Under the pieces are notes generated by a model, which made no database searches, was not told the origin of the DNA, and saw only the letters and a list, made by a program, of their open reading frames with translations. A DNA stretch of 64,000 nt from Sarea resinae (lineage: Eukaryota): assembly GCA_026026165.1 (NCBI GenBank), contig JAPEUD010000002.1, positions 62,001 through 126,000 of the forward strand, read 5' to 3'. The stretch's first letter is position 1; every line of letters starts with the position of its first letter. Made by a program: the position numbers and the translations under genes. Shown here one piece after another: positions 1-36,731 of the stretch.

Positions 1-2621
1 AGGAAGACACAGATCCACGAACCCCACGACCAGAACACAAAGCCGTGGATCAGGTAGATGGTGAAGATGTGCGGGAAAAGGAGCAGGAAGAGCTTGAACG
101 AGAAGATCTTCTGCGCGAACGGGCTGATTTCAATGAGAGCCTGGAAGCCGACACAGAAGACTAGCCCGTTGATCTTTGGCACGTAGTACTGCGGGTAGCC
201 TGGCGAAAATGTCTGAGCGATCGGCAGCCCGGATTGGATGTCGGGGTGGATGCCGTATTGGACGGTGGAGTAGTTGACACCCGTCCATTGGGAGACGAGA
301 TCGTGGGTGAGACCGCCGATACCACAGGCCGCGCAGAATATCACAACAGGATAGTAGACCCAGAGGTGCGAGTAGAGCCATTTCTTGTACTTGAAGGTGA
401 TGTCGAGATCGGCAAGCATGAGACCGAGCCAGAAGTACGAGCCCCACGAGAGCGCATACCAATGATTTACGACGACGAAGGCATAGAACGCGAAACGCTT
501 CCAGGGCGTCTTGACCTCACGGATCATAATGACGCCCAGCAAAACAATCCAAGAGCCTTGCAGTTGCACGGGTACGGTCCAGAGAACACCAGTGCAGTAG
601 TTGAAGGTGATCTGCGGAACGCCATTCGGGATCAGGTAGACGAGCTCCAGAATCTCGCTGACGAAGTTGCCGAAGCTGGTAAATTCGACGGTGAAGGGCC
701 AGGTGGACCAGGTGACGGAGGGTAGATATTCGAGCCATTTCAGGGCACCCGCATCCGAGAAGAAATACTCGAGTAGGACGATGGCTGTGATGGGGATCAT
801 AAGACGGAAGACGCGGCTAACGACCTTTTCGGCGACGCCGCTAAGCTTTCCGTTCCGGAGATAGCCCATCACAAGGAAACGAGTCGAACTGGTCAGGAAG
901 GGACCGATCCAGTTCTGGTTGAGCAGGTAGGCATTGATGGTCTTGCGCGTCCACGTTTCGCTCTTGTAATGGGCATAGGAACCAGGACTGAAACTGGCAG
1001 GGACGAAGGTCAGGACGAAATGGGTCACCGTGACGATGATAGAGGACATGGCGACAAGACCAGCCAGATGGTCCACACGCTGCCTGACGCGCGGAAGAGT
1101 GGCTGCTTGCGCGGCAGTCGTAGGAGCTGTTCCCGGTGGTACGGCGGTGACCGTGACGTCGGCGTTTTTGCCCTTCTCGGAGGCAATCACGTTGGGAGCG
1201 TGAACGTGATGTTCTTGGACGATTTCATTCTCCGACGTCACGCCGACTGCGAGACCAGGTCGTGTCGCACCAGCGCCCTCGATCGAATATCTGATCTTTG
1301 TGACATTGCCCGTCTCGTCTGGCGGCCCATCGACTCTTTGGACGACCTGATCATTGACGGGCGTTGGAGGCCGCGTCTCGTACAGTGGCAGAGGAGTTTC
1401 GGCTCCTGAAGGGGCCATCTCTTCGGGGGTCAGATCTCCAGACGTCGGTCCTGACGCGCCGAGCTTCTTGACTCTTCTCTTTTCCTTCAACGCTATCACC
1501 TTCTGCCACGGCTTTCGCTGAATGATAGCGTTCACCACCAGGAAAGTGCTCATAGAGATAGACGCAACCGCTATCGCGATAGGCACCCATCGGGCGGACC
1601 AGTGGTAGGGCTTTTGCTTCCACTTCAGAGTGGCCGCCCCGGGGAATGCGGTCGACCCACGAAGCTTCAGATCTTCCATCGAACAAGCAGCATCTGCCTC
1701 GGCCACTTTCAGACACCGCTTGTCGAATTCCTTGTGGTCATCATGCGACATCAAAGACGAATTGAAGAACATTCGCACCCAACCGACGTTGGCAACCGAG
1801 GCATTTCTCGGCGGCCCTTGCATCGCATAGGTGTCACCTTGCGAGTGGTGCTTAAAGTACAATGGAAGCGGGACAGTAGGAAACCCGCTGTAGTGACTTT
1901 TTTTCACGGACCGAGTCAGGTTTCCGCCAATATAGAAGTTGATCTCTTTATTCGTCCAATCCATCCGATACTCGGTGTAGTTCCATAGTGACTCGGTTGC
2001 GTTGATAGAGGCATTGAGGGCTACCGTGCTGAAATTGAGGCCAAGGTCCCGAGACGGAAAGTCGTCGTTGATCAGAGTGCTGACCCAGGCCATATCCGGC
2101 TCATCCGTGTTCTGGATGTTCATCTGAATCTGTTCCGTGTCATTGAACCAGAGCATCATCGTCAGCGCACTCCCTCCGGCATATGCCGGAGGTCCACGCA
2201 TCAACGATCTGAATGAGCCGTATTGGATATCACGTCGTAGTGATCTCAAAGAACTTCCGGGCACGACATGAGAATGCGTATATGGTAGGATGCCCATCTC
2301 GAGCGACTGAAATGGGGACCGCGACGCGGACGCATTATTGAGGGCAATATTTGACGATAGTGCACCTTCGCGGAAGACGGAATTCCAGTCCTTCTCGTAC
2401 GCATGCGTGTAGGTTTCGGCCTCGAAGTCTTCGATCGGCATACCAGTGGACTCATTGAAATAGATGATAGTAGATTCAGTGAAGAGCTCTTGGGTGGAGG
2501 CATCGTAGTAACCACACGAGCAATCCGTGTTGTTTGTTCCCGTGTGATTTGAGGCAGCATTAGCGGTAGCAAACAGAGCGCAAAGCCCTACGAGGGACAC
2601 CAACGCCGTAGGAAACCCCAT
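1..2621 (-). CDS. Secreted GH16/ConA-like domain + TM + acyltransferase-3 (AT3) fusion membrane protein, >=873 aa, runs off the left edge of the window
   Basis: Absent from the ORF track because it has no stop inside the window. Hand translation from ATG 2621 shows a signal peptide (MGFPTALVSLVGLCALFATANA), then DCSCGYYD and a GH16-like region (RRDIQYGSFRSLMR...NDTEQIQMNIQN...YTEYRMDWT...FYIGG). A TM helix (WVPIAIAVASISMSTFLVVNAII) and a low-complexity linker follow. The multi-TM AT3-like region has RVDHLAGLVAMSSIIVTVTHF, SRVFRLMIP, GVLWTVPVQLQGSW and FTIYLIHG. The frame is the same from 2621 to 3. Confidence 0.85.
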   Translation of the reverse strand, partial: MGFPTALVSLVGLCALFATANAASNHTGTNNTDCSCGYYDASTQELFTESTIIYFNESTGMPIEDFEAETYTHAYEKDWNSVFREGALSSNIALNNASASRSPFQSLEMGILPYTHSHVVPGSSLRSLRRDIQYGSFRSLMRGPPAYAGGSALTMMLWFNDTEQIQMNIQNTDEPDMAWVSTLINDDFPSRDLGLNFSTVALNASINATESLWNYTEYRMDWTNKEINFYIGGNLTRSVKKSHYSGFPTVPLPLYFKHHSQGDTYAMQGPPRNASVANVGWVRMFFNSSLMSHDDHKEFDKRCLKVAEADAACSMEDLKLRGSTAFPGAATLKWKQKPYHWSARWVPIAIAVASISMSTFLVVNAIIQRKPWQKVIALKEKRRVKKLGASGPTSGDLTPEEMAPSGAETPLPLYETRPPTPVNDQVVQRVDGPPDETGNVTKIRYSIEGAGATRPGLAVGVTSENEIVQEHHVHAPNVIASEKGKNADVTVTAVPPGTAPTTAAQAATLPRVRQRVDHLAGLVAMSSIIVTVTHFVLTFVPASFSPGSYAHYKSETWTRKTINAYLLNQNWIGPFLTSSTRFLVMGYLRNGKLSGVAEKVVSRVFRLMIPITAIVLLEYFFSDAGALKWLEYLPSVTWSTWPFTVEFTSFGNFVSEILELVYLIPNGVPQITFNYCTGVLWTVPVQLQGSWIVLLGVIMIREVKTPWKRFAFYAFVVVNHWYALSWGSYFWLGLMLADLDITFKYKKWLYSHLWVYYPVVIFCAACGIGGLTHDLVSQWTGVNYSTVQYGIHPDIQSGLPIAQTFSPGYPQYYVPKINGLVFCVGFQALIEISPFAQKIFSFKLFLLLFPHIFTIYLIHGFVFWSWGSWICVF

Positions 2622-5104
2622 GGTGGTCGAGTTTGAAGTTCACGGAGAACGACAGAGATCGAATTCGACGACTACTCCTTACATAGGTGCGAGCAGCAAA
2701 GGTTGCGTCCTTATCGAAGCCCGATCAGGCAGAAAAGCAAAGAAGTATCCCGTAAACCAAGGCCAAGGTGGTATCACAACATGATGTAGTCAACTTCGCC
2801 CCGCCAAGCTGCACTGGATCGTGCAGTTCCGAGAGCTCCTTCTGAACCGTAAGTTTAAGTCTCCACAATAATAGATGACTGGACTTACCGGCTACCTTGT
2901 CTTGCCCCTAAGCAGGGGAGCTCCATCACCCATGTCCGGACTTCCCAACAAACAGGGGAAGGCTTATCCTGCATCTCTGAGATAAGCATCATGCCCTTGG
3001 ATAGTGTTCGTCACGGGCTGTGCATTACTTGCGCGCAGACAGAAAAGTTACGGTGGCGTCAGCCGTGGGCCGGCTAGCAGACAGACGCCTCGAACGTCGA
3101 TCCTGCAAGATCAGAGAAGGTCGAAATAGCCGGTGCATCTGCCTGTTGTGGTAGGTCTTCTTAGGCCCACCCAAAGCAGGAGGTAGTCGGGAACTTTTCT
3201 CGGAGTCTTGATTTGGAGCTTCGTCAGGGTCCTACGGTATCTGGCATGAAGGCATATGCCGACCGGATTAGTGGTTGCACTACTCCGAGTACACACGTCC
3301 TCTGTAAGTAGCATGTAACTTCGTAGAGCACACAAAGAGCACTATGGTAGTCTCTGGCCACGCTTGTGCCTGAGGCCGCGGGTGCTTGTGCACAGACAGA
3401 AGGAAAGTCTGTCTGGGCCCCAGGGGGCCATCTAATCAGACTGCCATGCAGATGATAACGGGGGGCGAAGACGACCGGGTGTCAACACGACTTGATCTGA
3501 CGTGGTTCGATATACATCGAGAGCCCCCTGCTTGCAGGATCAGGTACTGTATCAGGTTGCGGCTTGCTGGTTGCTGGTTGCTGGCCGTAGGAGGTCGTAG
3601 GCTGCAGCTGGCGGCTGGTTCGGGGGGAGTTACTCTGCTCCGGGCGACGCATGAGTCGGAGGCCTCGAGGAAGCCATCAATTCGAGGCGGGTGGACGTAG
3701 GTGGCTTCCACAATTGGGACAGTGCCAGATTGCTAGAGCCTACCTTAATCAATATTCCCTCGTGGATCCGCAAGATGATGTCTGGATGGGGAAGGAAAAG
3801 CGATTGAGAAATCTCTGCGGTGTGCGGTAGGGATGTGGAGTTGCAAAGATGGCGGCATGGAGGCATGTACGAAGTACATAGTAGGGAGCTGGAGGATAAA
3901 GTGGAGTCGGCGAGACGGGTTAGACTGCCACCACAGCGACGGCGATAATACTACAAAGTAGTTTATTGATCCTAGCCCTTAACGCAGTCCCCAGGCACCC
4001 CCGTCGGCCCCCCCCGTCGGCCCTGTTCACGCCATTCGAGCCCTTCGACGCCCCGCCCCTTTACGGCGTAAGCCACCCTTCTCCCTTCTAGGGCCGAATC
4101 CTCCTTTCCATTACCTACGAGGACGGCAGTAGCACGCCCTGACCCTCCTCCAGCTAACCCCCACTCGGCCACTGCTGCCCTGCAATCGTCGTCCGAAAGC
4201 GGCAATCCATGGGATCGATGTACTACTGAAGTACGAATATCGACGCCCTGCGCCAGCATGGACTCCCCGGCCACATCTCGAAGCTTTTAGCTTGTACCCT
4301 GCCGCTACACTCTATCTCGAGGAGAAGGCGCTTATCCCTCCCCGACATGCCCTTAATTGCCATTGCCTATTGCTCGATGCCCATAAGTACTTCGTACAGA
4401 GAGCAGTAACGACGTAGGTGCCGGATCAATGCCCTGAATCTCCGAGGTGGGACCGCCACCATTGGCCACTGCCGGGACCGCAGTTAGCGTCTTCCGTTGG
4501 CCTTGTTCGCCTTCCCGTTCGACATCACATGTACTCTACTCCGTAGGCATCTTCGTGACACAACTCTGGTGATAATCGTGAAGATACCACCATCTACATC
4601 CATCGCTAGACCTAACTCGTACTCGACCACTCGTCCCTCTGCTCCCTCTGCACGATATGGGTATGGGTCTTCCGGACAGGTCGGACAGGCCGGACAGACA
4701 GGGCAGACAGGGCAGACGGGGGGGCCCAAAGGGTCGTCGATCATGTCTCCATTGGGGAGCTTCGAAAGAAGCCGCTTGCATGCTGGTATTATTGTCCTCT
4801 GGGCCAGAGGGTGGCAGCGTCCCTCGACGCTCATATCCCGGAAGCTCGATATGCAGGCATATTATCTCCCCCCCACCAACCGGGTAGGCGTAGCTCCCGT
4901 CTCCATCAACATATTATTATGCGTTGGGAGAGCCAGATTCCGTCGACGTCGAGCTGAAGAGAGATCTTTAACGGTGATCGGCCCCTCGTTATTTGTTTGA
5001 GCTCCTCCATCGACCGAGCTCCCCTTTCTCATCTTATCGTGCCATCCGACGCTCGTTGCCTTACGACATTCGTTGCCGTTCGACACTTTCACATTCTTTC
5101 CAAG

Positions 5105-6852
5105 ATGGCCGATAGAGACATGGAGATCACCGCGGTGCAGAGCCCTCACTTCCCCCGCAGCTCTGCCTCCACCTCGGTGCAAGAGAAGCCTTCGACTGAC
5201 GGCAAGGACTTTGCCATCACCATCGAAGAGCCTCCTTTGCCCGCGTACTCCGATTCATCCATCAAGGAGCCCCGGACCGATGAGAAGGGCGGCAAGGATG
5301 CCAAGGACTTCGCCATCACCGTCGTCGAAGAGCCGTTGAGCTCTGGCCCTAGCAGTGTTGACCTACCTCGTACGGGGGCCAAGTTTGCCTTGCAGAATGC
5401 CACTGCAAAGTCGACCGCATTCATTCAGGAGTGGACTCCCTTCCTCCTGGTCGCATCATACTTCGTCTTCTCAACGTGCATCTACATGGTGTGCACCGCG
5501 AGGCTTATCTCGATCTTTTGGTTCATCTATCTCTCGACGAATTTCTACATCGCCGGAACCACGGTTACGGAGGCTTTCATAAGCATTGAGCCCTGCAGAG
5601 ATGCCCGAAAAGTGGTGGAAAGGCTTGCGGAGAAGAATTGGGTTTTCCCAACTCCCGATGACCAGTGCTTGATCCTCGATCTTGTGATCGTTGCCTATCT
5701 GCCCAACGAGAAGGACATTATCATGGATCGAATTCAATACCTCTGCGAGAAGATCATCTACCCAGCCGACAAGATTAGAATCAATGTCGTCTACAACACG
5801 CCGAAGCCAATCGAGCCGCTGGAGACGGAAATGCGATCTCTCGCAAGCAAATACTCGAACCTTCGCATCCACAAGGTTTTGGATTCTACGTCCAAGGCCG
5901 ACAACCTGAACTACTTCTTCACGCTCGATACTGGTGCGGATGTTATCGCTATCTACGACTGCGACCACTATCCCCATCCGTATGGCCCACGTCATGCAAT
6001 GGAGAGGTTCCATCAAGACAAGACGGTTGATATTGTTCAAGGCCGATGCATTGTCTTCAATGCTGCAGATACGCTCATCACCGGAATGATCTCGGTCGAG
6101 TTTGACAAGATCTACGCTGTCTCTCATCCCGGCCGTGCTACCATGTTTGGTTTCGGTCTATTCACTGGTTCAAACGGTTACTGGCGGGCGGATCTCATTC
6201 GAGAACTCCGAATGGACGACTCCATGTTGACCGAAGATATTGACTCCAGCTTGCGATCAATCGAGCATGGAGCGAAGACTGTCCACGATCTCAATGTGGT
6301 CTCCTACGAACTTGCACCAACGACTCTGAAAGCCTTGTGGTCACAACGACTCCGATGGGCACAAGGATGGGCACAAGCGAGTATCAAGCACATTCCCCTG
6401 ATTTTCAGCCGAGCATCGCACGGCAGCCGTGACGTTAAGACCCGATTCGGTATTTTATCTTTGCTGATCGTCCGAGAATGGAGTTACTACCTGGTCACTC
6501 AATATTTCTGTCTGGTCCTCAGCATCGTCATCACGGCTTTCCCCAAATCTGCCCACTCGTTCGCGAAATTCATCTACTTCCAGTACCCCGTGTCCGAATG
6601 GCTGTTCATTATTAGGTACGTCCATCGCTCCCATTTTGAGTACTCCGATACTGATCCTCGTGCAGTTTGACATGTTTGATTGCCACCCTCGTCATCACGT
6701 TCCGCGTCAAATCGGAATTCATCACGCCGGGGATGATCGTCATGTTTTCTGCCTTCTATCCGGTGTACTTGGTTCTCATGGCCGTGGTCGGTCTGTACGG
6801 CCACGCAAGACAAGTGAGCAAGTATTCGTCATGGAACCCGACTGCTCGGTGA
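5105..6852 (+). CDS. Processive family-2 glycosyltransferase (polysaccharide synthase-like), 2 exons
   Basis: Contains the D,D,D,QxxRW signature: YLPNE, KADNLN, YDCDH, TEDID, QRLRWAQGW. TM helices lie on both sides. Intron 6616-6665 (GTACGT...CTGAT...GCAG) joins ...FIIS-LTCLIATL... and the stop is TGA at 6850-6852. Confidence 0.9.
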
Positions 6853-9800
6853 AGCAGCAGCACGATGGGCACAATTAGACTTGGGGGTGGGCGGGGTTGG
6901 CGTTATTCACTCCTTCATGCTGGGGTTTGCTGGGTGGGTACTCGGTTTGGGGGGTCCACGCGTAACACTTTACGATTCTTGATGCAATACACGTCAAACC
7001 AATTAGAATTACCATTGCATATAGAGTTTTTCGGACAACGGTTCCTTGCAGACAATTAATGCCGAGGCCCGGTTGGGCATTGCACATTGCATCTTGAACA
7101 TCCATGGCGAATATTGCCTTTGCCTTGATCGTGTCATGACTGCAAGAATGGCATGGTGAAGAGGAAAAACATTTCGAATTGGGCGCCGGGAGATCGGCAA
7201 GGCAGCAAATGCCATTGTACTACGACGACGGCCAGCGATGAAGAAATGAAGTGATGAAGTGATTCTGGTGGCCGGAAGGAGGAATTGATAAGCCCGTCGA
7301 TATTGGAGATTGATTAAGGTAATGACTAGGTCCGGGTCAGTGAGCACATTATTGATGATGGTGGTGGATGGCGAATATCAGTATATCACGATGAAAAAGG
7401 CTTGGCATGGGCAGATACCCAAGGTAGTACCTGTACGCAGTGCCTACTACTATGAGTAGTGCGAATGCGAGGGAACCTGATAGCCTTCGTAGGTCTGTAC
7501 TACGTTGGTAGGTAGGTACCTTTGCATCCATTCCCTTTAGAAATGAGACCCTCCAGCTGTCTGGACGCCCAAAGGACCCCGAAAGAATCAGATACCTGAT
7601 GTAGGTACTCAAGTATCTTTTGGGGCGGGGATGGGGGGAGGCGACTTCGGCGATCTTGGAAGAGTTCAGCAGCTCCATTACCTGACGACCTTACCTACTA
7701 CCTAGGGTAAGGTAGGTACCTTACCTACCTCCCTAGTAGTACTGTACCTACATCAAATACCACTACTGTACTGGAGATGGAGGTTACTAATGTAGCCTAC
7801 CGGCCAGTTCCCGAGAAAGAACCTTATTATCCACCTCGGAGCAGCGATGGATACAGAGTAGCTCGCACTCTAGTCGGCTCGGTCATCATGGATGGCCCGC
7901 AGCACGACATGATATCTGCACATCCCGAAGCAATATGGAAGGCGAAGAAGGATGGGAGACGGCGCAGCAGGGGAGTCATAGAAACGAGTCTGTTATCTCC
8001 GTTATCTCTTCACGTGTTTATCTCCCATCAAGGCTGTTCCCTTCTCTTCGGCCGCGTGTGAGAGAATCGGGAGTTGGTCAGTCGTTAGGCTGCTGTTCCC
8101 CACGCGAGTTCTGTTCCGAACTGACCAAATGGAACGGGACCGTTCAGGGGATCATTTGCCATGTTCTTGCCTCGAGGTGGGCACGCAGGCACTGCTGGCG
8201 GTTGCCCAGTCACTAAGTTGGCGAGCGGATCATCCAGCCCAAGTCAGAACTGTAATTCTCAATGGAGATCCGGTCGTCACGGTAGTGACGGCAGTGGAGG
8301 GACAATTAATATCCGTAAAGTCTGTTCGATGGGTACCCTCCTGATTTTCCTTTCTCCATCAGGCCCAGACCCGGTCGAGCAGGCAGCGTCGAGTGCATGG
8401 CTGAAGACGACTCATTTGGATGGATGGCTTGGCATCAATCTCTGTTCTTGGCAAGTCATGAGCCATCGCCATAGGTCGGTCCCTCAGGTCGCAGCCATTG
8501 GCCATTAGCGACGTTTCTTATTTAGTAGGCACTCTAGCTTTCTTGGCACGCAGACGTGTCAGGAACGCGCATACCGGCAGAGGCAGGAGGGAGCTGAAGG
8601 GAGCTGGAGCGGAGTGAACGGCGGTACCTACGTGGTACCTGCCGGGGGGATCTATCCAGGTACCTCGTCCCTTCTTGTGCATCCTGTCTGGCCTATTTGC
8701 ACCCTTTGCACCCTTTGCAGCCTCTGCACCATCTGCTTTTTGCTTCTTCCCATTAACCTTTCGACCCGTCTCTTCCACCGGATCCTAGTGAGAGCGCTTG
8801 AGGCAAACGCCATCCTCGGCCATGCTCCGCCATCCACCGCCATCCACCGCCATCCACCCGTTAGGTGGCATGTGGAGACATGTTTCCCAGGTGGGACGAG
8901 GTCATGGATATGCATCCCAGAGAGGAAATAGCCAAACAACCAACTACGAGTCCGCTGCGCACCAGGTACTTCCTACCTGACCTACTTTACTTACCTTACA
9001 CGGAGCTACACTACCCTTGGTATCCGACGACGCCCTACCTTATCCTATCTGACCTGCCTACCTACTCTATTCGACATGCTAGAATTAGCCCGTCCAACAT
9101 TCCGAATCATGCGGTCGAGCAGAGTCCTCCAGCTGGCCCTTTAACCGGGTCCTAATCAATCGGCGCATCTATATCTAAGGTACACCTGAGCTACCTGAGA
9201 GATCCATGCTTAGCCGGCACCCTACGCGAGTAGAGCGTCCGTACTTGCCTGCGTTAATCGACCCGAATCGATCAGCAACTTATGCTAGAAGTCCTTGGCC
9301 CGTCGCCGTCGCAATCACCGTCGCCGTCTCCGTCTTCTCCGTCCGTCACCACCAGATTGCAATGCTGTAAACGAAACTTGTCTCTCAGCCTTTGCCTCAA
9401 ATGGAGGGAGCCATGACCCAGTCACAGCACTACTGCTAATATCACCGCTGCTATGGACTAGAGTACTGCCGATGTGACTTCTCTCCCGACGGCACCCGCG
9501 AGATCTCGTTGGCCTTGTTCGAGACCGAATCATTCCTGCCTCTGTTTCCCTTTCTTATCGATCCTTGATCCCGTCCCGAGGACAAGAGAAACAGAGGGAG
9601 AGATATGAAATCAGGATAGGAGAGATAGAGGGAGAGATAGAGATAGAGGGGAGTCACGATAGATATGCCATTGCCCATCTCGTTATCATCCTTTGCCATC
9701 CATGGTCTCCTATCATCACGACTATCTATCTACACATGATCGTATTCGTACTCGTCCCGTCCCAACGTCCCGTCCAGACGGGAGACGGCCGTCGTCAGTC

Positions 9801-10473
9801 GTCAGTCTGTCTCATCTTAGCGTCACGATCAGCTTTGACCAAGTCCTCACCTTCTTGTTGTCGTGCATCCCACACGTCGTACATTAGGCCATAGGGCAGC
9901 GCAGGGTTGAGGCAAGATGAAGCACCAGGATGGGTGAGCCGGGCATATGAAGCATCTGAAGTCACGGCTAGCCCGTAAAGGGAAGTCTGCTCTAAATTCT
10001 CGAGCCGCGGGAATAAAGTGGAACCCCCCCCCCCTTCCCCCTCCCCCTGCGGTGGGTTATTTCGTTGATTCGCATCTGGTCTCCTGCTTCGAATAGGAAA
10101 GATCGACGGCCCAGCTCTGGACTGAAAGGAGACTGGTGAGCTCAGAGGCGTCGGAGCATCCTGGAGCTCCATAGTTTAGCCTCTGCCGCATACTATGCAG
10201 TTCTCGACGCTCAACACTACGCACTCCCCTGCAACCCTTGCACTACTTGCACTACTCTTGCTCTCTTACTTGCCCCCCGGCACAAGGCTTGATGTCTGAT
10301 CGATCCGGCACATGGAGCCTTACTGACCGCATGGGAGCACGTTACCTGATGCAAGCCTGGGAGGTTAAAGAGTCTGACGCGCTGGCTGTCCGACGGGCTG
10401 CGGCAGTGTTAAGTTGTTGCAGAGAAGCAGCAGCAGCAGACCTTCCGCGCACGAGCAGGCAGGCACGATCAAG

Positions 10474-11847
10474 ATGGGGAGCCTTTCAGTTCCCAAGCTT
10501 CCAAAGCTCCCTCAGCTCTTGAAGGAGCAATATCCCAAGATCACCGAGCAGCAGTATCTTCTCGGTCTGCGCGGTGTCTTCGTCATTGAAGCCTTTCTCT
10601 GGGTGTTTTTGCAGGTCTTCGCCCCGGCTGCCGTCAAAGATGCCAACAATCACCGCGGACCGCATTATCAGGTCATGTTCCGGAAGACGCTCTCTGTTCT
10701 GTTCTGGAACGAAACCCTCATCTATTCCGCCATCATCTTGATCTCCGCCCGAACCATCTGCATTTCTTTTCTGCGAGACTCGAACAAGACCAATCTCGCC
10801 AGCGCCTTGTTTCGCCGAGGTCTCCGTCTCTGGTTCCCGGCGGCGGTGGCATTGGCCATCGTAATGCTCATCTTCTCTCAGACTGGAACGAGCTACATCG
10901 GCCATTTCCAGGACCACACGCACAACTCGTCCTTCAACTCGCCCTATCTCATCCCCAATGCTCTCGCCTACTTCAATTCCGTCTTCAACATCTTCTGGAC
11001 GGTGCATAAATATAACGAGCAGGCGGCCAGTACGGCGTTCCCTTCGCAGACGCTATGGATCTTGAGTGTCATCTACCAGCAGAGCTATACCATCTATATC
11101 TCCATGATCATCATCCCGTTTACGCGGAATTCATGGCGCGTCAAGGCCTGGATCCTCTACATCATCACGGCATGGTGGGTGCAGTCCTGGGCGTGGTACT
11201 CGATTACCGGTCTGGCACTGGCCGACATGGTCATGAATATGGGGTTCAAGGAGAAGGCTCGACGTGGCATCCCAATCTGGAGGTCGATCCGGTGTCCGGT
11301 GTGGATCCCCTACTCGATCATCATGGCTGCTGGCCTCATCATGCAGTACCTCTGGGTGGCCTGGAGACCGCAGTACGAGAACCGCGAGCTCCGCATTCAC
11401 ACGGGCGAGTATTACACTGGCGGATTGAACAATCAGTACGACATCAACCAGCCGCAGGCCCGAGATGACAACTATCTCGTCTTGGTGGGCTTGTTCCTCT
11501 TCCTTGAGACATATGATGTCCTGCAGTGGATCCTCTCCAATCGATTCTTCTTATACCTGGGAACGAGGTCGTTGAGTAAGTTTCGCGAACCCGTTCGCAT
11601 TATTGAGTCGATGCTAACGAAACTCTAAGGCTACTTCTTCATGCAAGGGATCATCATCTACACCGCTGGAATCAAGCTGTTCATGCATCTCAATGTCGAG
11701 AAGCATCTGAGCCACCCGGCCAGCAATGTTGTCACCTTGATTGTCTGCCTCATCACCACTGTCGTGGGAGCCGAAGTCTTTCACCGACTGATCGACTATC
11801 CGTCGCAGCTGCTGGCGCACAAGTTCTTCGATTGGATCCAGGAATAA
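10474..11847 (+). CDS. Stand-alone acyltransferase-3 (AT3)-like polytopic membrane protein, 2 exons
   Basis: AT3-type motifs QYLLGLRG, FRRGLRLWFP, TLWILSVIYQQS, YLGTRSLSYFFMQ and FHRLIDYPS. Intron 11576-11629 (GTAAGT...CTAAC...AAG) restores the frame into ORF 11641-11847. Confidence 0.85.
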
Positions 11848-15800: not shown

Positions 15801-18800
15801 TCACGACACCCCCCCAAGCTCCTCCTCGATACCCCTTTCTCTGGCCCCCACCAGTCCCCCCCCACCATGAGGACTTCCCCCACCACCAAGGCCAAGCCTG
15901 CTGAACCTTTTCCTAACATTGCCGACGATCTGACGACCATTACTCTTCGCGCTCAGCAGAGAGGTCGTGTTACTCTCCGCCGTCATGGGCCTGCCATCAT
16001 GACCGTCATGATCAGTGCGAACGCTGGGCGTACGACTGCCGCTTCTGCCGCTTCTGCCACCACTCCGCCGACTCAAATTGGATGGTCGCGGTCGTAGCGC
16101 CGTTGCCGTGCCAGTGGCCGTGGGTGGCGGCGATAGCGTCGTCTGGGAAGACGTTTCGCCCTGGCCTTGATAATGGCGGGACCGTGACCGCGACTGCGAT
16201 GTCGTGGCCGGCGAAGACGGGTCCGTCGTGGTGTCGCCATTAGTCGTGTGCGACTCCGTGCGCTGCAGCTCGGGCGTGCTGGGCCGGAGGCTGAAACCGT
16301 GGCCGTGGTGGCCGTGACCATAGCGGTGACCGTGGCCGTTGGATTTGCTGTTGGTGGTGGTGTTGCTTTTGCGGCTCTGGCTGCGGTCATGCTGCGAGTG
16401 GTTCTCGGCGTTGTTCGTATGCCGTTTGAGAAAGGAGAGGCTGAGACGCGACTTGTCGTGTCGTGTCTGTCGCTGCGAGGACGACGTATCTTGCGATGTG
16501 ATTGTCTCGCCTCGAAGGCGCTTGTTTGAGAGGCCTTCGACATTGACGGTCGGTGGTGGCGAAATTGCAGCGAGTGAGGCTTGCGGGGTGGGCGTCTCCC
16601 GCTGTTGAGAGGATGGGACGAGAGAGGACAACTCGGGGGCGAAGGTGTGCTCGAAATCTTACAAGTCCGTTAGTATATGTACTCCAAACAGAAAAAAGAA
16701 TACCCACTGCTTGTCAGCTCAATCTGCGTGGCCTGGTGCGCCGATCTCGAGTACAAGGTCAAGCATCGTTTCACCTGCAAGGCATGGTCGAGCAGCGCAA
16801 CTTGCAACGCCTTTTCCAGAGGATCCCATTCCTTCTCCTCCACCACCGCCTCCTCGTCCTCTTCTTCATCCACCTCTCTCACCGGAAGCATGTCGCGGTA
16901 TCTCGCGATGCTGGCGGCTGACGTCCCATCAACGGAAACATTCAACATCTCTGTCATCATACTAAATCCAGAATCGTCACCATTCGTAATGCGTCTCTCC
17001 AAGATAGCCAGCTCTTGCGTCTTCCTCACCGTCCGCTCAATTGCAGTTTGAAGCGGTGATAAGCGGACGTCCTCTATGGCGACTATTTCACTTCTGCGGA
17101 GAATTGTAGGAAACGTCTCGGCCGTGATATATACAGTCTTCTCGACCGAGTGATCCGTGATGCTCCTCCCCCCTGCTCTCCTCCGAGACGTCACTGAGAA
17201 GCGATCGAGCTTCTGCGACAGAGCCCACTCTCTGACCCGAGGCGATACCTTCCACCTCTGGTAGACGGGATGTGCCACATCTTTATGTGGGCTGACGGTG
17301 CTGATCTGCAAGAATTGGCCTTCCACATCCTCAATCTCGCCAGCAGGGACAATTTGAGCAGCAGGATGCTGTTGCTGCATTCGATCCGTGAAAGAGGCGA
17401 ATCGTTCCGAGGGGGATCCTTCGAAGATGAATTGCTTGTCCCTCAGAGCGACCGGGAAACCAAGCCCTCTGTAGATGACCCTGAAATATCTAGGGCTCTG
17501 AGGCTCGCCGTCGGATATCGTCTCGTAAACCTTCGCCATGGCTCTCTGGGTTCGCGCAAGCTTTGAGAAGTCAAACGTGTTCGTCTCGTACTGGAGTGCC
17601 AGCTCTTTATAGGTCTCCAAAGCGTTATCCCACGACTTTCCGTCCTCGAAATGCTTGATCATTTCAAAGTAGAGTTGCTCCTTTCGTTCAAAGGCGGTCT
17701 GTTCAGGGAAAAGGGGATCCTCTAGGCTACTGACGGTCTTATTTGGGTCCCAATTATACAGATCTGCATGCAATCGTAAAGCCAAGCCCGCTTCCTTGGC
17801 GTTCCCGGTCTCGGCTTGCAGATTTGCCAACTGGTGGACATACTGAATGTATATATCTTCCTTCTGCATATCTTTCAGAAACTCCATAAGCCGCAAGGTG
17901 TGCATAATATGGAATGCCTCTCCGGTGGTCTCGGGGCTGTGGACCGCAACCAAAAGATCCAGCAACTCATCAATCACCCCGATCAGGTCCTTGATAGCAG
18001 AATAGAGCGGATCGTCGGGCACCTGAGACAACGGCTCGAATAGATCTAGAAGCTCGCTGATGAACAGCTTTTGCAAAATGCTCTCCGTCAACGGCTTTGA
18101 CTTGAAAAGAATGTTCAAGCAGTCGATCATCTCCGCCTGTATCAAGGATAGATCATCACTCAGAGTCCACTCGCTAACAATCATTGTCTGCAGAACTTCA
18201 ATCGCCACGCTTCGAAGGCCTTCGTGAACACTGAGACATAGCTCGACAATGGGTGCCACTAAGCCAGGAACGTATTGTACTTGATAACCTCCCATTTTCT
18301 CCAATCCGTATCGTCTTCGATCTTCCATTGTCGTTTCCCATCCTATGGCTTCCCAACTGCGCCGTAGCAGATCTGCACCTGATTCACGGATGTCTCCAGC
18401 GATTTTCCAAACGGCTCTTCTTTTCTGTTCTGGAAATGTCTCGAGTGTTAAGACCTCACTTCCTACCAGTTTGAGAAGAGTGTCAAAGAACATGCGCCAG
18501 AGATCAGTATTGAATTCATCCGCTTCATCTGGATGCGGGAGAAAGGAGTCCACCAGCACGTTGGATAAGTATTCAAGTGTTCGTAGAATGGACCTATGAT
18601 GGTAGATGTGAACACTCAACCACGAAGATGGGAAAGCCTCGCCAACAAGAATTGACATCTTGACCTGGAGAGTATTAAAGAGGAGGTCGGATAGTTGCTC
18701 CCCTTCCAGGCCTAGGGCACAAAAAGAGGGCCCACACGACATGGCTGCAAGAAGCGCCGATATTTCGACTAGAGCTTCATCAAAGACAGGTCGGCCGGCA

Positions 18801-21800
18801 ATAGTTTTCGTCGGAAACGGATAGGTTCTTGAAAAGAGTAACGAGAGACTGGTTTTCTCTGCGCGCTCGGTTGTCTTGATCGCAAGATAGGATTCGACAG
18901 CCTTGGGAATATATTCTGACACTTCAGGACCGAGTTGGTCGACTTGCGAGGAAACGACGGAACAGCAAAGACGCACTTGATCCCGCCACTGGTCCGTGAC
19001 ATGTTCGGTGTAGCCCCAATAAGGAGCAAGCCAACGGACGGTATTGACTGCCAATATCCGTCGATTTTCTGGCTGCGAGAAGACAGCTAGAGTAGAGTAG
19101 TTGGCGATCAGGATAAGCTTGAAGAGTATGAGCTTGCCCGTAACATTTTCGCAGGCGTCCATAAAGTCCACTGCGGTTTGGACTACCTCTTCGGTGGGAA
19201 GTAGCCCGGAAAGCTCAGGAAGCCACGTATGAAAGTGTTGAACGACAAGAGTTTGACTACCAATCAGAATTGGTGTCGAACTTTTCATCAAATTTTCCAA
19301 AGCCTTGAAGATTCGCCGCAGGTCACGCGTGAATGTCGGCTGCGTGCTGGTGATCCCTATGCCTGCTTCTTTGATCTTTTGTTGTTCCCTAGCATTCAGG
19401 ATCAACTTCAAGATATGACGGCCGACCTTGAATGCGGCACGAAGTTTTCTTGAGCTGTCCAGCTCAGCTGGTTTCGACAATAGGCGGGCATAACTTCTGA
19501 GCAGGCAAGGCGTTGCAAAAGGGTAGTTGAACTTTTCCTCCGCGTAACGGTCCACCAGAGGGCCCACATTGAAGCGTCGATCGTGGACTATACCCAAAAC
19601 AATAACTAAAGCATTGAAGACTAGGTCTTCATAATCATCCTTGCCTGAATGCTCAACTAATATACCGAAGAGAGAATCGAACACGTCTCCAAGAAGTTTG
19701 ACGATTTCTATTTCGGGCACAAACACCACCCGCTTGAGCAGCTCCACGACTTCTTCGGACGTTCTCTCGCGCCATTTTAGTAGCCCCAGGACGACCTTGT
19801 CTTGAGAGAATCTAGTACTGCAGAGATAGCTCTCTAGCTTGATTGTCGCAACATGGCCTGTCACAGCTTCATCTTTAGAGATGTCGTCCTTTCCTTTAGC
19901 ATTCCATCGAGTTGATAGATAAGCGCCCTTTCCGTTCACAGTACCGGACGTATGCTCATCATATTTGTAAAGTAGAAGCGAATGAGTTCCGTCACGGATG
20001 AAGGCCTGTTGTTCCCAAAGTGGCATCCAGCAGAGAGCAAATGGGAAATTAGGAGCATCCGCAAGGCTCATGACTAGATGACAATCGGGAACATCATCGG
20101 GTGGGATTGCAAGCCTCACCGTCTGACGCCAGCCTTCACCGGCCTCCACACCTGTAGTCTGCCATGCCGTGTGGCCAATACTATTAGATGAAGGGTAGAT
20201 GCAATTTTCTATTCGGTCACCTGAGCTCTTGCGGACTTCCAGCGTAAGCTGGAGATTGGATAGTCCTGCCGTCGGAGGTATCGAAAGGCTTCCAAATTTA
20301 GGATGTGACAGCAATGCATTTCGAGAAAGCAAGGCCTCGGATATGGTTATGTAGATATCGGATCGCGGTTGCGTAGGCGCGCCAGAAAATCCAATCTTCT
20401 TAATCCGGTCAATGTTATGCAGAAGGGTTGGAGTTTTCTTAATCAACGTATCAGCATCGGGGCAAGACATTGCCTGGATATGCAGATGAACGCGATCTGC
20501 AGTGAGCTTGGAATAGCATCCTGATCGACTCTCAATAAAGTCTTGAATAACCTCGTCCCAGTTGTCCCCAATCTCCTCGGCCACTGCTGTCGTGGGAGCC
20601 CACATGTCGAGCACTTGTTCCGCGCACTGATCTGCTTTCATCATGTGGCCAATCGAAATAACGCCAACGCCTACTGTGCGCTTGATCATCGGCGCATCTT
20701 TTGATCCGGGTTTGAGTCCCGAGGTGGCAGGCCGAGTGTCACCTTGCGCACTAGTAGGATCTTGCGTCGGGGTATGAACGGCGTCGCGATTCCGATGTGA
20801 GTCTCTTGAGCTCTTGGAACCCCACATGAAGCTCCGTCTTCCACCTTTTGGGCTTGCAACAGTCGGCGAGTGGGATGAAGATTGGGGGCTGCCTTCCCTC
20901 GATACGACATTCCTTGATGGGCTAGCTGTGACAGGTCTAACTGCTCTAGGTCGTTGGATCTTCACGACGAAGTAGAGCGACGATTCTGTACCTGTCCCCT
21001 CTCCTATATCCTTGGTGCTCAGGTCGGTAAAGAGAGCCTTTAGATTGTTCGCCTGGGCTAGACCAGGGGGATTACCATGAGCAGGAATGTCCGCCGAATA
21101 GTTTTCGGAGATCTGGACCGGAGGAAGGCCAGTAGTTCTGGAGTAGAGAGCTAGAGTAAGCGTTGTCGACTCCCGGGGCGCACCTCCGAAAGCTTTCAGG
21201 TCGACGAGTAAGTGATGCAAGGTATGCAACGTCGGAGTACCCTCGACATGATGCGCTGGCTTCTCGTCGAGAAGATTCATCATAGCTTGCAATCGAGTGA
21301 TCTCGATTGCGGAATCATCACCGGTGAGGATTCGACCGCGCTGAGTAGGATCTCGAACAATGACTTCACCGCTCAGCATCTTATTCCCGCTCACAAGGTC
21401 CCATACCGTTTTCTCGCGTAGTATTTCCAGCTCTCGACCAGTCAATACGCCACACAAGAGCTTTTTTCGGGCCATGTCCAACTGTTGGACCAAATTCGAC
21501 ATCTTCTCGAGAGCACCATATCTTCGTGCCAGTAACAGTTCATGTAAATTTGTCGAGTGCCATTCCCTCAGACACGAAGCGATTTCGTCCACCAGAGGTT
21601 CTTGCGCCGATGTTGGGGTCTCGTCGCCAATCTTTAGCATGGGAACCGGCGCTGGAGGCTTGGGTGCGCTGGGATCTCGCGGGCCGGCCGAGAGAGGAGA
21701 GAGCGGAATTGCCAACTGGTTGAATGACTGTCGTGACCTGATGGAGCGAGGAGATGACTTGTTCATGAATGTCGTGCTTTCGCGTTTGTCCGACTTCCGC

Positions 21801-22270
21801 TTTGAATGAGATCGCGAGATTGCCGCGGCCTCGATTGTCGAAACCGACTTTCTCCTTGTCGAAGGCCTTGACCGAAGAGACATCCGCTTTGCACCGCTGA
21901 GCCTGGTAAATGTATCATCGCTCGGCAGGCCACCGTTTGTGTATCCATTGCTGAAGTTATCCTCGGTCAGATAACCTTCTTGTCCAAACGATCTCGTCTC
22001 TCCCAGAATCTCTCTTATCTGGACGCAATTTCTCGGGAAAATGCCCGAGAAGACGCGCGCCTCCAGTGTCTGTCCTTTGACGCTCGTCAAGCCTGCCAAT
22101 AAAGACGGTGGCGCAACGAGATAACCCCTGAACCAGGACCCATCCGAGCCACCTTGTTCAATAATATAGATCGAGTCTCCTATCTCGAGAGGGAGGTCTT
22201 GTGGCGAAGATGGTTGGAACGGGTATATGGCGACTGCAAAGGCAATTCGCGCAAGAGGCCGCCAGGGCAT
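15801..22270 (-). CDS. DOCK-family (dedicator of cytokinesis) Rac/Cdc42 guanine nucleotide exchange factor; SH3, C2/DHR-1 and DHR-2 domains, 2 exons
   Basis: Starts MPWRPLARIAFAVAIYPF (ATG 22270) with an SH3 domain (LPLEIGDSIYIIEQGG..WFRGY). Other motifs: PRSDIYITI, YFRVIYRGLGFP..LRDKQFIFEG, FPTILRRSEI, SPLQTAIE. Intron 16707-16658 (GTGGGT...CTAAC...AAG) joins in frame to a low-complexity C-terminal exon (ORF 15801-16631). Confidence 0.95.
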
Positions 22271-23545
22271 GATGCCGGTCGAGCTCGTGGTGGTCCGTGT
22301 GGTTATGAAGATGCAGCGCAAGCCGCCTGCTTGCCTTATCCTGCGTGTGCGCAACGCCAGCTGCGCATTGAGGACGGGCGAATCGAAGCCGCTAAAGCAA
22401 GTGTCCTCGAGCAAGTATTGCGCCGGCAATGGTGAAGTTGAAGCTGTCGCGACGTCTTTCTGCTCGGTGTTTTGGGAGCGAGCCCCTAAAGGTAAATCTT
22501 CCCAAGTCGTACGGTGGTAGTGTACGGAGTACGAATACCTAGCGATTACTCTACAGACAACGCCAAGGTCGACACGAGCTTCGAGTGAGCGCAAAGAAGC
22601 CTCCCTGGCTTATCCAGAGAAGAGCGGGCAGATGAGAGGTGACTGTTAGGCCGTCGTAATGGTCTGCATGAGAATTGCGTATGGTCCGTCGTATTATCCA
22701 GTGTTGAGCGATGGTGTCGCGGGCAGCGCGAGCAACAAAGTCCTCCAGGCTCTTGGCCGAATTGTTGTGGTCGGACTGACTGAGGGCTCGAGCGTCCTCG
22801 CCTAGCACGATCGATACTTTGCATCAGCCGTTGCATCCGCCCATCGGCCGCGTACCTCATCCGTACCTGCACCACCTCAGCCAGCCACTATGGACCGACC
22901 CCGGACTTCGAAGTGGAGCGGAGCCTGGATTCATTTCCACCGTCTGGGCACCCCGTCCACGGGCGGAATGCAGCATAGTACCCCGGCGTCGTCATTCCAA
23001 GCATCTTCATCTTCATCTTGAGCCTCATTTCCATCGTTTTGATCACACATATGTCCATGGATCCACACTCGACTTCCTCGAGCGCTACGGTACGGCAGAC
23101 GCCCGTCCTGACGTTGACGTCGTCTACTAGACCCGATACGGAAATGCATCAACAACAGATGGAGCAGGTGCTGTGACTCAGGGTGGCTATAACGGGTCGG
23201 AATCAAAATCAGACTCGGAGTCAGAGCAAGCACCCGATAAGCATCTCCTGCCTGAATATACGTTTACGTTCCAAGTCGTCTCTGATTTCGATTCTGACTG
23301 GATACCCTGTGAGTGTCATGAGCGTACTACTCCTTTTCGGTTGTTTTTGTAAAGTGAAAGAGAGAAAAGAGCACTGGAAGGAAAGACATCGAGTGTCCTC
23401 TTCCTCTCATGGCTATATAAGGCTGTCGCGGTCTGCTGCTGTGGGGAATTGATTCTTCCGAGGGACGCTACTAATTCAACGTTGCGTTTCAAGGGTACCA
23501 GAACAAAGACCTAACTCTGGATTATTGATTATTTCGCGACTTGAA

Positions 23546-24728
23546 ATGCCTGTGACTATCTAGACCGCGCCCCATGGCGCAAATATCATAACGAAGGTCG
23601 GCAATGAGGACGACTTCGGACCTGTGGCGCTCAAACCAATCCACGATGCGAAACGGCTTCTCGAGCTAGCTTGCCCTAAAGACCACGAGAAAAGTCTCGG
23701 GATCATTCAATCATCGTTCTTCTTTCCAGAAGAAGGATCTGAGTCGAAGTCCGCGATTTCGGCCTCAGACAACGGTTTCGTCCGCGCAGTCCTCGATTCC
23801 TATAATCATCACTACCATCTGCGCATCCGACCTGATGACGTCTGGCAGTCCATCTTGGTGCAGTTCAGTATCTACATCAACAACCATGCTGAGGAGCTGC
23901 GCGGCAAGTTCGTGGCGCATGATGGTCAGAAAAGAGCTCTCTGTCGGAATCTCGACGTATGAACAATTCGATCTGTTCGCCAAGATGATCAGCCATAAGA
24001 TACAGGAGAACGTTACGGATGCCAAGCTGCGCGACTGGATGATACCGAAGTTCTCGACCAGTACGGAAAAGGATGAAGTCGTCAACAGTATCTTGTTCAT
24101 GGGCGCGATGCAGAAATACTTCTCATACAAGGCCTATGCGTGGTGCGGTACGCCGTCCGTGACGCTCTTAAGCTCTCGCCAAGTCTGGGAAAGTATCTTG
24201 ACGCGGGTGGAGAAGCTGGCCGACTACGGTGACGAGCCGAAGCTATAGAGAACACTGCTGAAGCCCGTGCTGCAATATTTCGTCAAGAGTTTTGACGACC
24301 CTCAGGCCGACGACGTGGTATCTTTCTGGCAGCGCGTGATGCAACGCAACGCATTAAGCAGTGCAGGGCCTGGTCCGTTCTACTTTTCCGGATGGATATC
24401 TGCATTTGTGTTCTGGGATCAGCACGGCAGGTGCCTCTATCACGATAATGGAGAGTTTCAGAGGTATGCTCTAAAATTAGATGGCGTGATCTACCATTGC
24501 GTATACGCGGACGCGATACTGTCAGGATCGTCCTCTGTCCCGGTGATAGTTGTTGACCTGATACACGGCGTCAAATTCAATACCGTAATGACTGCGGGAT
24601 CTGTGGGAATCGAATTCTCGAGTAGTGAGAGCCCGTCCGCGAATGACGGAAAAATAGGGCTGGATACTATGACTCCCTTCTCTGGATGGTGGATCTGCAA
24701 GACTGGAGAAGAAAAACCGACCTCATAG
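23546..24728 (+). pseudogene. DUF4419-like protein pseudogene
   Basis: Family-like motifs (SDNGFVRAVLDSYNHHYHLRIRPDDVW, IPKFSTST, MGAMQKYFSY, CGTPSVTL, SGWISAFVFWD) are spread over two frames. Lesions: in-frame TAG at 23561, frameshift at ~23929-23933 (CAGAAAAGAG), in-frame TAG at 24246. Confidence 0.75.
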
Positions 24729-34900: not shown

Positions 34901-36731
34901 TGGATACCATTAATGAGAGCAGGTCGGCGACGCCAGAGCGCCCGACCGGGGAGCAGACCATCTCAGATTCTTCAAGTCCATCTAGCGTAGTAATCGCAGA
35001 GGCCGTAGCGGTTCCACGCGCTAGACCAGTCCAAACGACACCTACACACGATGGAAAGAAGTCTGTGGATCATAACCCAGCTTCCGAGCTCTCGGTGAAT
35101 GAATTATTTCAGTCTACTGCCGGAGAAGAAGATGAATTTCCATTCTACTCGTCTTCGGACTTCCTCCTTGGCAATGGAGGTCAGGCTGAACCTAATCCAT
35201 TTGAATCAGACCTGCAGGAATCCAAGGAAAGTGGGGAAAGTGGAGAAAGTGACGGTACAGGTGGAGCTACTAGCTCTGAATTGAGAAGAGCGTCTGTGGC
35301 TTCTATCGGAAATGTTTCGCGAGGAGAGGTGAGTGACAATTGAGAAAACATCCTTTAATGACATTGACAATTGGCTAGGTGAAAAGCATCGATATTCGAA
35401 AGAGTCCTAGCACGTCCTCAATAATTTCGACACCTGCCTATGAACAACAAGAGAGCTATAATGTACAGACACCAGATGATCCCTCCTGGGAAGAGCAAAC
35501 GGGAACTTTCCAGTCTGCTGCGGGCTTGAACGATGGTGGCAGGTGGGAAATGCCGGATGAAGATTCTCCTATGGTCCGTCATTCGGAATGGCGAGCAGAG
35601 AAGGCCAGAGGTTCAACCTCCCCATCTGCACTGGAGAGGCCGAAAGGTCGACTTACAGAAATATTGGACCAAGAGAGTCCAGTAACCGTAGGAAAGCCCA
35701 GGCGAAGACTTTCCGAGCCAAATCGTTCAACTTTAGCGGTTGATACTCCAATAACATCGCCAACAAAAGGTAACACCGAAAATGCAGACGAACATCTGGA
35801 ACAACAAATCAGTGAGATTTTGACCACGCTTCCTGCTCGGATTCGATTGACCTCGGGACCGGAGGCCGATGCACCAGAAGTCCTCTCGCCAAAGGGTGCT
35901 TCGGCAGGCAGAAATCTGCGTCCGATACGTAAAGCCAGGGCTTCACTTGGGAGTCCAGCTTTGACACTCGCCCCAGCATATGCAAAGAACTCACGTCCTC
36001 GTCTTCGATCTAGTGATCCAGACATTAAACTTTACCATCTCCATCGTCCAGGGAAAGACGTTCCAACAAAACTATATGTGCGATTGGTAGGGGAGAACGG
36101 CGAGAGAGTCATGGTTCGTGTGGGCGGTGGCTGGGCAGACCTAGGAGAATACCTCAAAGAATATGCCAGTCACCACGGACAGAGATCTATCTCCGAAGGC
36201 CATTTCGACATCCAGGGTTTACCAAAGAGAACTTCCATTGCATCGCTTCGAGCAAAGGCAACCGGGAGATCCACACCTATTAGTAGGCCAGGCTCTGCGC
36301 TCGGGCGGCCTACGTCGGCGCTTGATCGACCAGCATCAGCACTGAGCGTCCGCAGGACTAGACTTTCCGAAGGAGCAGTCCTCGAACCCAGCGGTCCTCG
36401 GCCCAAGACACCGCAGCCACAACCGACGCAGCCTACAACGCCTAATCCCAACACATTCAGACTTTCCGAAGCCACTCCTCCATCGGCTACCTCAAGTGCC
36501 TCCCTGCGATCATCCTCACGTCTCTCATGGACCGACGAGGACCCTGCGCTTGGTCTTGCAGGTCCAAAGGGTAAGAATGTGGAGATATCGAGGGAGAAGC
36601 AGGCGTGGGTTGACACGGTGGTCGGAAAGGTGCGACGATCGAGCGCGGAAAAGAAGACTGATTGGGGTGATTTGGGTAAGGCGGGTGCAACAAGGAGGGT
36701 TTATATGCGGGGGAATACCAATGAGGAATAG
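31906..36731 (+). CDS. Large low-complexity protein with a C-terminal GAS2/GAR microtubule-binding domain, 2 exons
   Basis: GAS2 signature KLYVRLVGENGERVMVRVGGGWADLGEYLKEY. N-terminal helical region. Intron 35329-35378 joins the two ORFs in phase. Confidence 0.88.

Follow-up and report, generated by a model that had tools for sequence, protein, structure and literature searches.

A conserved trio of a probable Cps-family GT2 synthase gene and two genes for AT3-fold membrane proteins in Sarea resinae and other filamentous ascomycetes, a candidate module for an extracellular glycan

Bacterial O-acyltransferases of the AT3 family occur both as fused AT3-SGNH proteins (OafA, OafB, OatA) and as AT3-only proteins (Oac, NolL, ExoZ), and work on OafA has established a histidine in the first transmembrane helix (TM1) and an RxxR motif as AT3 features. 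In the present study, a locus of the fungus Sarea resinae was analyzed in which two genes for AT3-fold proteins accompany a gene for a GT2 synthase. The locus occupies the first 11,847 nucleotides of a 64,000-nucleotide stretch (assembly GCA_026026165.1, contig JAPEUD010000002.1, positions 62,001 to 126,000 of the forward strand), which is referred to as the window and whose numbering is used throughout. On sequence comparison, the synthase probably belongs to the fungal Cps family (Cps1/ZtGT2/CpsA/CPS-1). King et al. (2017, PMC5653360) showed that Cps orthologues are widely distributed among filamentous ascomycetes but not found in yeasts, that the family is missing from Saccharomycotina, Taphrinomycotina and Pezizomycetes, and that the Leotiomyceta carry a second Cps paralogue. 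The two paralogues have been named Cps1 and Cps2 (in Botrytis, Bccps1 is Bcin05g06910 and Bccps2 is Bcin03g03750), and in the Botrytis study that uses these names (PMC9500679), Cps2 is described as the less conserved of the two, with losses in 14 of 39 species and with no expression ever observed in Botrytis. Deletions of Cps1-type genes in plant and human pathogens caused strong defects in hyphal growth, cell wall and virulence, without the polymer being identified in these reports (PMC5653360, PMC9500679, PMC6485754).

Our reading of the locus, to which a probability of about 0.5 is given, is that it represents a single copy of a module of three genes, ancient in origin, that filamentous ascomycetes (Leotiomyceta) carry and in which the GT2 would extrude a glycan, a fused GH16-like/AT3 protein would hold and acylate it, and a histidine-less AT3 paralogue would act as an accessory. 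The synteny described below supports the trio as a real, dedicated and widely conserved module around a processive GT2, and its probable role is the synthesis and modification of a glycan located in the cell wall or outside the cell.

An initial annotation, drawn up from the DNA letters alone, had placed three consecutive genes here, with the fusion gene divergent from the GT2 gene, and this arrangement was confirmed by the gene structures, by database matches and by RNA splicing. Gene 1, the fusion, lies on the minus strand as a partial coding sequence at 3–2621, a single open frame that begins at Met 2621 and runs past the left edge of the window; it corresponds to residues 1–873 of the 973-aa database protein P0242 with a 100% match. 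By coordinates, a divergent intergenic region of 2.48 kb (2622–5104), presumably a shared promoter region, separates it from gene 2, the GT2. Read from the sequence, gene 2 comprises, on the plus strand, exon 1 at 5105–6615, with an RNA contig over 5885–6191, a 50-nucleotide intron at 6616–6665 (GTACGT..CAG) and exon 2 at 6666–6852, with the stop codon TGA at 6850–6852 and RNA reaching at least 7077. Its spliced product is identical to the 565-aa protein P0002. Gene 3, the stand-alone AT3-fold gene, was read likewise on the plus strand, with exon 1 at 10474–11575, a 54-nucleotide intron at 11576–11629 (GTAAGT..AAG) and exon 2 at 11630–11847, with the stop codon TAA at 11845–11847 and RNA reaching at least 12175; the spliced product is identical to the 439-aa protein P0122.

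Contigs of the metatranscriptome run X2, at least 99% alike to the window, join 6613 to 6664 (a cut movable by 2) and 11575 to 11630. Both predicted junctions are thus joined in RNA, which shows splicing of the two introns and transcription of genes 2 and 3 in the X2 sample. For gene 1, the same run yielded a 48-base piece at 30–77 with 4 mismatches, from a contig that mostly did not fit, which is uninformative on expression.

Conservation of the trio was evaluated on metagenome contigs, which were scanned with the GT2 alignment to give 80 loci and then searched by tblastn with the window proteins. A locus was considered fungal-type when its best GT2 segment was at least 45% identical (69 loci); the distant GT2s were at most 36% identical (11 loci). 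Both partners were present in all 20 fungal-type loci whose flanks reached 6 kb or more in each direction from the GT2, and at least one partner in all 43 that reached 3 kb or more in one direction, while the 20 partner-free fungal-type loci all had flanks shorter than 2.3 kb. None of the 11 distant-GT2 loci carried a partner. After merging of near-identical loci, the 20 complete loci collapsed to about 14 lineages. On these counts the grouping is not due to chance, and the dedicated cluster proposed in the initial annotation is upheld. The nucleotide-sugar or other accompanying genes that it had envisaged were not found as conserved neighbors in 14 related loci and the window: outside the trio, no family of open reading frames of at least 90 aa was common to more than 2 of these 15 loci, a comparison that could miss genes built of many short exons.

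The order seen in the window (fused gene on the minus strand, GT2 and AT3-like gene on the plus strand) was found in 15 of the 20 loci. In four, the AT3-like gene was located between the fused gene and the GT2, and in one the fused gene was located downstream of the GT2; the AT3-like gene adjoined the GT2 in all three orders. A synteny search had also been proposed with the initial annotation, and the linkage proved to be kept across the metagenome loci and seven named fungi, with exceptions in Sclerotiniaceae and Lecanora. In Monilinia laxa, all three genes carry consecutive tags (EYC80_000890/891/892), and in Sarea resinae itself genes 2 and 3 are M1819_002081 and M1819_002082. Neighboring tags, which reflect annotation order and not distance, were also observed in Coniosporium tulheliwenetii (H2199_003213/3214), Neocucurbitaria cava (N0V83_004904/4905), Cryomyces antarcticus (LTR16_000989/991), Claussenomyces (M1818_005624/5625) and Lecanora helva (ACLMJK_006368/6370), and several strains of Paecilomyces variotii showed adjacent accessions (e.g., KAJ9353831/2 and GAE00152/1).

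Loci of rearranged gene order formed a clade, consisting of L022, L024, L031, L047, L048, L057 and L076 (order B) and L028, L051 and L052 (order C). Its members had long branches in all three proteins, the GT2 tree nested them among Dothideomycete sequences, and the trio was kept together through the rearrangements.

It could be argued that the three genes are neighbors only through conserved synteny or promoter architecture and serve unrelated processes. Linkage by itself is no proof of common function, and the cluster is broken in some Sclerotiniaceae. However, the trio has been kept through three gene orders, in both paralogue subfamilies of the synthase and in several classes, whereas the other flanking open reading frames differ, and this explanation is regarded as extremely improbable.

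The GT2 matched Pfam PF13632 (Glyco_trans_2_3) at E 3e-18 with 66.7 bits (cut-off 27) and PF13641 (Glyco_tranf_2_3) with 46.7 bits. The full set of GT2 motifs reported in the initial annotation was recovered as invariant columns in an alignment of 26 sequences, namely D285/D287 (DCDH), E377-D378-D380 (TEDID) and Q414-R-L-R-W418. Identity to homologues across Leotiomyceta ranged from 55 to 69%. At two to three times the normal length of a GT2, the database entries P0381 (Curvularia clavata, 1408 aa) and P0580 (Neophaeotheca triangularis, 1544 aa) may be merged gene models (GT2 plus neighbor) or true fusions.

The families found at the locus were GT2, GH16 and sub-threshold AT3, in agreement with the earlier view that it is not chitin, β-1,3-glucan, α-glucan or GAG machinery; chitin and glucan synthase systems were considered for the trio and rejected. 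The glycan had been described in the initial annotation as one that could not be matched to these pathways. The synthase does stand outside the named glucan, chitin and GAG pathways, but it is not an orphan, since it can be assigned with good probability to the published Cps family.

The closest bacterial models were those of the PNAG synthase PgaC/IcaA (E 5.8e-20) and of cellulose synthase, both far under their cut-offs. This bears on a second alternative, in which the GT2 would make short oligosaccharides or a glycolipid, such as NodC-like chito-oligosaccharides, and the AT3 proteins would decorate them to give secreted signals. In rhizobia, NodC is a GT2, and NolL and NodX are AT3 enzymes that decorate Nod factors. 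PgaC/IcaA is the best bacterial family model, and several database homologues bear the name "N-acetylglucosaminyltransferase-like protein". However, the PgaC score was 71.6 bits, far under the cut-off of 422, the GT2 has the C-terminal transmembrane bundle and the QxxRW motif of processive exporting synthases, and no NodA- or NodB-like gene was conserved nearby in 15 loci. Published Cps1 work also points to wall or surface defects (PMC5653360, PMC9500679). Production of such signals is therefore considered very unlikely.

Placement within the Cps family was based on the occurrence of homologues, the shape of the tree and Botrytis gene numbers. Homologues of the GT2 were present in Botrytis, Monilinia, Paecilomyces and others. 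With a chytrid homologue as root, the GT2 tree separated into subfamilies X (8 rows, support 99) and Y (60 rows, support 95), with the window GT2 in Y and with Paecilomyces and Claussenomyces having one GT2 in each. This topology agrees with the published Cps1/Cps2 split. Subfamily Y is likely to be Cps2, which would place the window GT2 in Cps2 rather than Cps1, because the branches of Y are longer, because the Botrytis sequence in it maps at a distance from the Bcin05g069xx region, and because Aspergillus, Fusarium and Neurospora are missing among the 120 best matches.

Four loci of subfamily X (L023, L030, L055 and L065) had the same layout as the Y loci, so the linkage survived the duplication or predates it. 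In Botrytis, the fused gene BCIN_05g06940 is three gene numbers from Bccps1 (Bcin05g06910). Given the shared layout of the X loci and this proximity, the association probably extends to the Cps1 type that has been studied. Co-duplication of the whole cluster is not claimed as shown, the partner trees being only partly congruent with the GT2 tree. In the open-access literature (PMC, bioRxiv), no description of a linkage between a Cps GT2 and two AT3-fold genes was found, and no mention of Bcin05g06930, 06940 or 06950; in the open-access Cps-family papers searched by text, the word "acyltransferase" was absent and the flanking genes were unmentioned.

Gene 1 encodes an N-terminal hydrophobic, signal-like segment (2556–2621, minus strand, as are all coordinates of this gene; read from the translation), followed by a GH16-like β-jelly-roll ectodomain at approximately residues 23–335 (1617–2555; Pfam PF00722 and Foldseek) with many N-x-S/T sequons. 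A single transmembrane helix at approximately residues 345–369 (1515–1589) was indicated by a helix at 345–369 in the structural model m918a387d0e16 and by a hydrophobic stretch. The linker that follows, at approximately residues 370–514 (1080–1514), had a pLDDT below 50 over residues 368–514 of the same model; with about 145 residues of low model confidence, it is probably disordered, and it would be located in the cytosol. The AT3 membrane domain, multi-helix in the model, covers residues 515–873 in the window (3–1079) and extends to about residue 930 past the left edge.

The GH16 model PF00722 matched residues 128–270 of P0001 at E 5e-7 with 29.8 bits, above the cut-off of 22, and it matched 24 of 25 aligned members of the gene 1 family. 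By Foldseek, the ectodomain resembled the lichenases 1u0a and 3o5s at E of about 1e-9 with TMt of 0.72–0.74, and its fold neighbors included lichenases, laminarinases, EG16 and the Crh5 transglycosylase (6ibu). For the catalytic site, two candidate alignments were compared, one given by a weak phmmer match to EG16 and one by the strand order in the model. Motif counts here and below were taken from alignments of the 120 best homologues of each partner protein. The canonical ExDx(x)E triad of GH16 was not conserved under either alignment, although the residue equivalences rest on weak alignments. Under one of them, E163 was kept in 65 and E166 in 66 of 120 homologues; under the other, E174 was kept in 4 and D176 in 11, and the acid/base position was Ala178 in 111. 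In the window itself, the phmmer-aligned site reads D-E-P-D-M-A, and the strand that matches by structure reads E-Q-I-Q-M-N. As no candidate catalytic column was conserved, the domain is more likely to bind glycans than to hydrolyze them. The GH16-like assignment of the initial annotation is thus supported by both Pfam and fold, whereas a hydrolytic role is not.

The fold neighbors of this domain are relevant to a third explanation, in which a wall glycan is built or anchored without acylation. The GH16-like domain would then be a Crh-like transglycosylase or a lectin tying the Cps polymer to glucan or chitin, and the AT3 folds would be pseudo-enzymes serving the synthase as membrane scaffolds, channels or regulators. 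The presence of Crh5 among the fold matches is in line with it; the lack of any conserved candidate acid makes canonical transglycosylation unlikely.

The AT3 domain of gene 1 was recognized weakly by Pfam, PF01757 matching the C-terminal part in the window at E 0.0022 with 17.5 bits and the full-length protein with 13.1 bits (cut-off 31). At E ≤ 0.01, the same model matched 14 of 25 aligned gene 1 homologues, the best at 7e-9. The domain in the window carries an R-V-D-x-L-A-G-L motif, the TM1 histidine (His534) and R603-x-x-R606. Among the fused homologues, His534 was present in 98 of 120 (Asn in 21, Ser in 1), R603 in 119 and R606 in 98 of 120, and H792 in all 119 aligned. No SGNH-type Pfam match was found in P0242 or P0122 at E ≤ 1, and no NCBIfam family was found for genes 1 and 3.

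Fused homologues with Asn in place of the histidine (including P0247, P0262 and P0275) were mostly metagenome proteins, with Candelaria pacifica, a lichen fungus, as the source of the only entry that bears a name. In the Botrytis/Sclerotinia/Monilinia type (22 sequences; the P0331–P0359 group), the second Arg of RxxR is replaced by Gln. Both may represent subgroups with altered or lost activity, judging by these substitutions.

Gene 3 gave no Pfam match even at E 10, and 4 of 25 of its homologues matched PF01757 at E ≤ 1, the best at 1.4e-4. Aligned by hhalign, its family matched the AT3 domain of gene 1 over 403 columns with a probability of 98.9% and E 1.6e-17. A search of PDB sequences with the gene 3 profile returned no matches, and a Foldseek search of its model (pLDDT 80.5) against PDB returned nothing at E ≤ 0.001; the fold was recognized only by a wide search, which yielded HGSNAT with Z 16.7 and 15.5, GWT1 with 11.1 and the next chain with 6.2. 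The profile alignment to the membrane domain of gene 1, together with the HGSNAT/GWT1-like fold, identifies gene 3 as a paralogue of that domain.

In the TM1 histidine column, with the alignment anchored by a T-F-V-P motif common to both proteins, His was found in 0 of 120 members of the gene 3 family; Val occupied this column in 87, Thr in 13, Ile in 8 and other residues in 12. Other positions were strongly conserved: the Arg of G-L-R-G was kept in 114 of 116 aligned sequences, S91, R93 and R115 were invariant, and H309, the counterpart of H792 in gene 1, was present in 115 of 120. To judge from these columns, gene 3 may lack acyltransferase catalysis, so that acyl transfer may be absent from one or even both of the supposed "acyltransferases". 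Of the stand-alone AT3 put forward in the initial annotation, the superfamily fold and homology were retained, while the TM1 histidine and a Pfam match were lacking.

These counts also bear on the explanation without acylation. The absence of the TM1 histidine from the gene 3 homologues, its replacement by Asn in 21 of the fused ones and the constant position of the AT3-like gene next to the GT2 are consistent with it. On the other side, the conservation of His534, R603 and H792 in the fused AT3 domains suggests retained chemistry, and assembly of the glycan without acylation is judged unlikely, although it is the strongest of the three alternatives.

Returning to the reading as a synthase-plus-modifier module, the following course of events is proposed. 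With two N-terminal and about three C-terminal transmembrane helices around a cytosolic domain bearing D, DxD, TED and QxxRW, the GT2 would form a polymer from a UDP-sugar and export it across the plasma membrane. Gene 1 would set a GH16-fold module outside the cell, which probably binds a β-glycan and does not cut it, tethered to an AT3 domain of about ten transmembrane helices that keeps the TM1 histidine and RxxR. By analogy with bacterial AT3 O-acyltransferases and HGSNAT, this domain would take acyl groups (probably acetyl) from acyl-CoA in the cytosol and pass them through the membrane to the held glycan. Gene 3 would partner either the synthase or gene 1, in a non-catalytic role or with catalysis of another kind. 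O-acylation of the glycan is suggested by family membership, and we infer the nature of the polymer and the joint action of the three proteins on a single chain.

In a bolder form, which must be considered doubtful, the Cps synthases, including the Cps1/ZtGT2 type required for virulence and for hyphal growth on surfaces, would form the center of a plasma-membrane machine of three proteins, in which an AT3 enzyme tethered to a GH16 lectin O-acylates the nascent glycan and the histidine-less pseudo-enzyme is an obligatory subunit of the synthase. If this were true, the Cps product would be an O-acylated β-glycan of the outer wall layer, and acyl groups stripped off when walls are extracted with alkali or acid could account for compositional analyses in which nothing appeared to be missing in cps1 mutants. 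The trio provides concrete partner genes for the Cps synthases, and O-acylation of a β-glycan is a testable chemical hypothesis for what Cps makes. It also comprises two uncharacterized protein designs, namely an AT3 domain fused to a GH16-like module (not SGNH) and a conserved AT3 paralogue without the TM1 histidine.

Several observations weigh against the synthase-plus-modifier reading. As given above, the AT3 domain of the window itself stays under the Pfam threshold (13–17.5 against 31 bits), part of the fused homologues have Asn in the histidine position, and the gene 3 family has no histidine there at all. Linkage was not universal either: matches to the GT2 and to the GH16-AT3 gene were on different contigs in Sclerotinia borealis, in three Botrytis assemblies the Y-type GT2 and the GH16-AT3 gene did not share a contig, and ACLMJK_005593 of Lecanora helva stands apart from the 6368/6370 pair. 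The partner trees mirrored the GT2 tree only in part. X-linked AT3-like genes formed one clade (support 100), nested among the Y-linked ones with weak support, and the Botrytis GH16-AT3 type was unresolved in the tree of fused genes. Finally, according to King et al., cell-wall analyses of cps1 mutants did not clearly show any sugar to be missing (PMC5653360).

The spacer between the GT2 and gene 3 (6853–10473) measures 3.6 kb, compared to about 1–2 kb in most related loci. It contained no Pfam-positive open reading frame and no Rfam family, and short tandem repeats were noted at 8696–8736 and 8808–8858. A 151-base RNA contig of run X2 matched 9481–9631 with 3 mismatches and may represent an unannotated transcript or a long 5′ leader.

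By Pfam, the right flank of the window contained unrelated housekeeping genes, namely a DOCK-family exchange factor (a 1979-aa frame at 16673–22609, minus strand), pieces of a leucyl-tRNA ligase (37831–41434, plus strand), a prenyltransferase α-subunit repeat protein (56079–56849, minus strand) and a CDC20/Fizzy WD40 protein (58814–60220, plus strand). A DUF4419 protein (23670–24245) and a GAS2-domain protein (35379–36728) were present in addition, and no nucleotide-sugar enzyme was among these genes.

Compared with known fungal systems, the GT2 of the window has the same Pfam families and motifs as the Cps family, i.e., Cps1 of C. neoformans, ZtGT2 of Z. tritici, CPS-1 of N. crassa, CpsA of Aspergillus, MoGt2 of M. 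oryzae and BcCps1/BcCps2 of B. cinerea. It differs from the characterized Cps1 in falling into subfamily Y, the presumed Cps2, a paralogue without published function. The GAG cluster of Aspergillus, which consists of a GT4 synthase, an epimerase, a deacetylase, GH135 and GH114, was the analogy drawn in the initial annotation and is similar in being a co-located fungal gene set for one exopolysaccharide. Membership of the trio in such a cluster was rejected, as no GT4, epimerase, deacetylase or GH135/GH114 was found in the trio, the right flank or the related loci.

The ectodomain of gene 1 shares its jelly roll with GH16 lichenases, laminarinases, EG16 and Crh proteins (TMt up to 0.74). Unlike these enzymes, it is membrane-tethered and AT3-fused and lacks a conserved ExDx(x)E triad. 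Among solved structures, gene 3 is nearest in fold to HGSNAT (8jkv, 8tu9) and GWT1 (8xik), with 282–293 aligned residues. Identity to them is 11%, however, their acceptors are heparan sulphate and GPI inositol, and gene 3 is without the histidine. Like the bacterial AT3 O-acyltransferases, gene 1 combines a multi-helix AT3 domain, with TM1 histidine and RxxR, and an extracytoplasmic domain, and it is located beside a glycan synthase. In contrast to the AT3-SGNH fusions, it has an N-terminal GH16-like jelly roll and no C-terminal SGNH domain. Furthermore, the Arg of G-L-R-G is replaced by Val, Ile or Leu in the fused protein; gene 3 has the Arg and no histidine.

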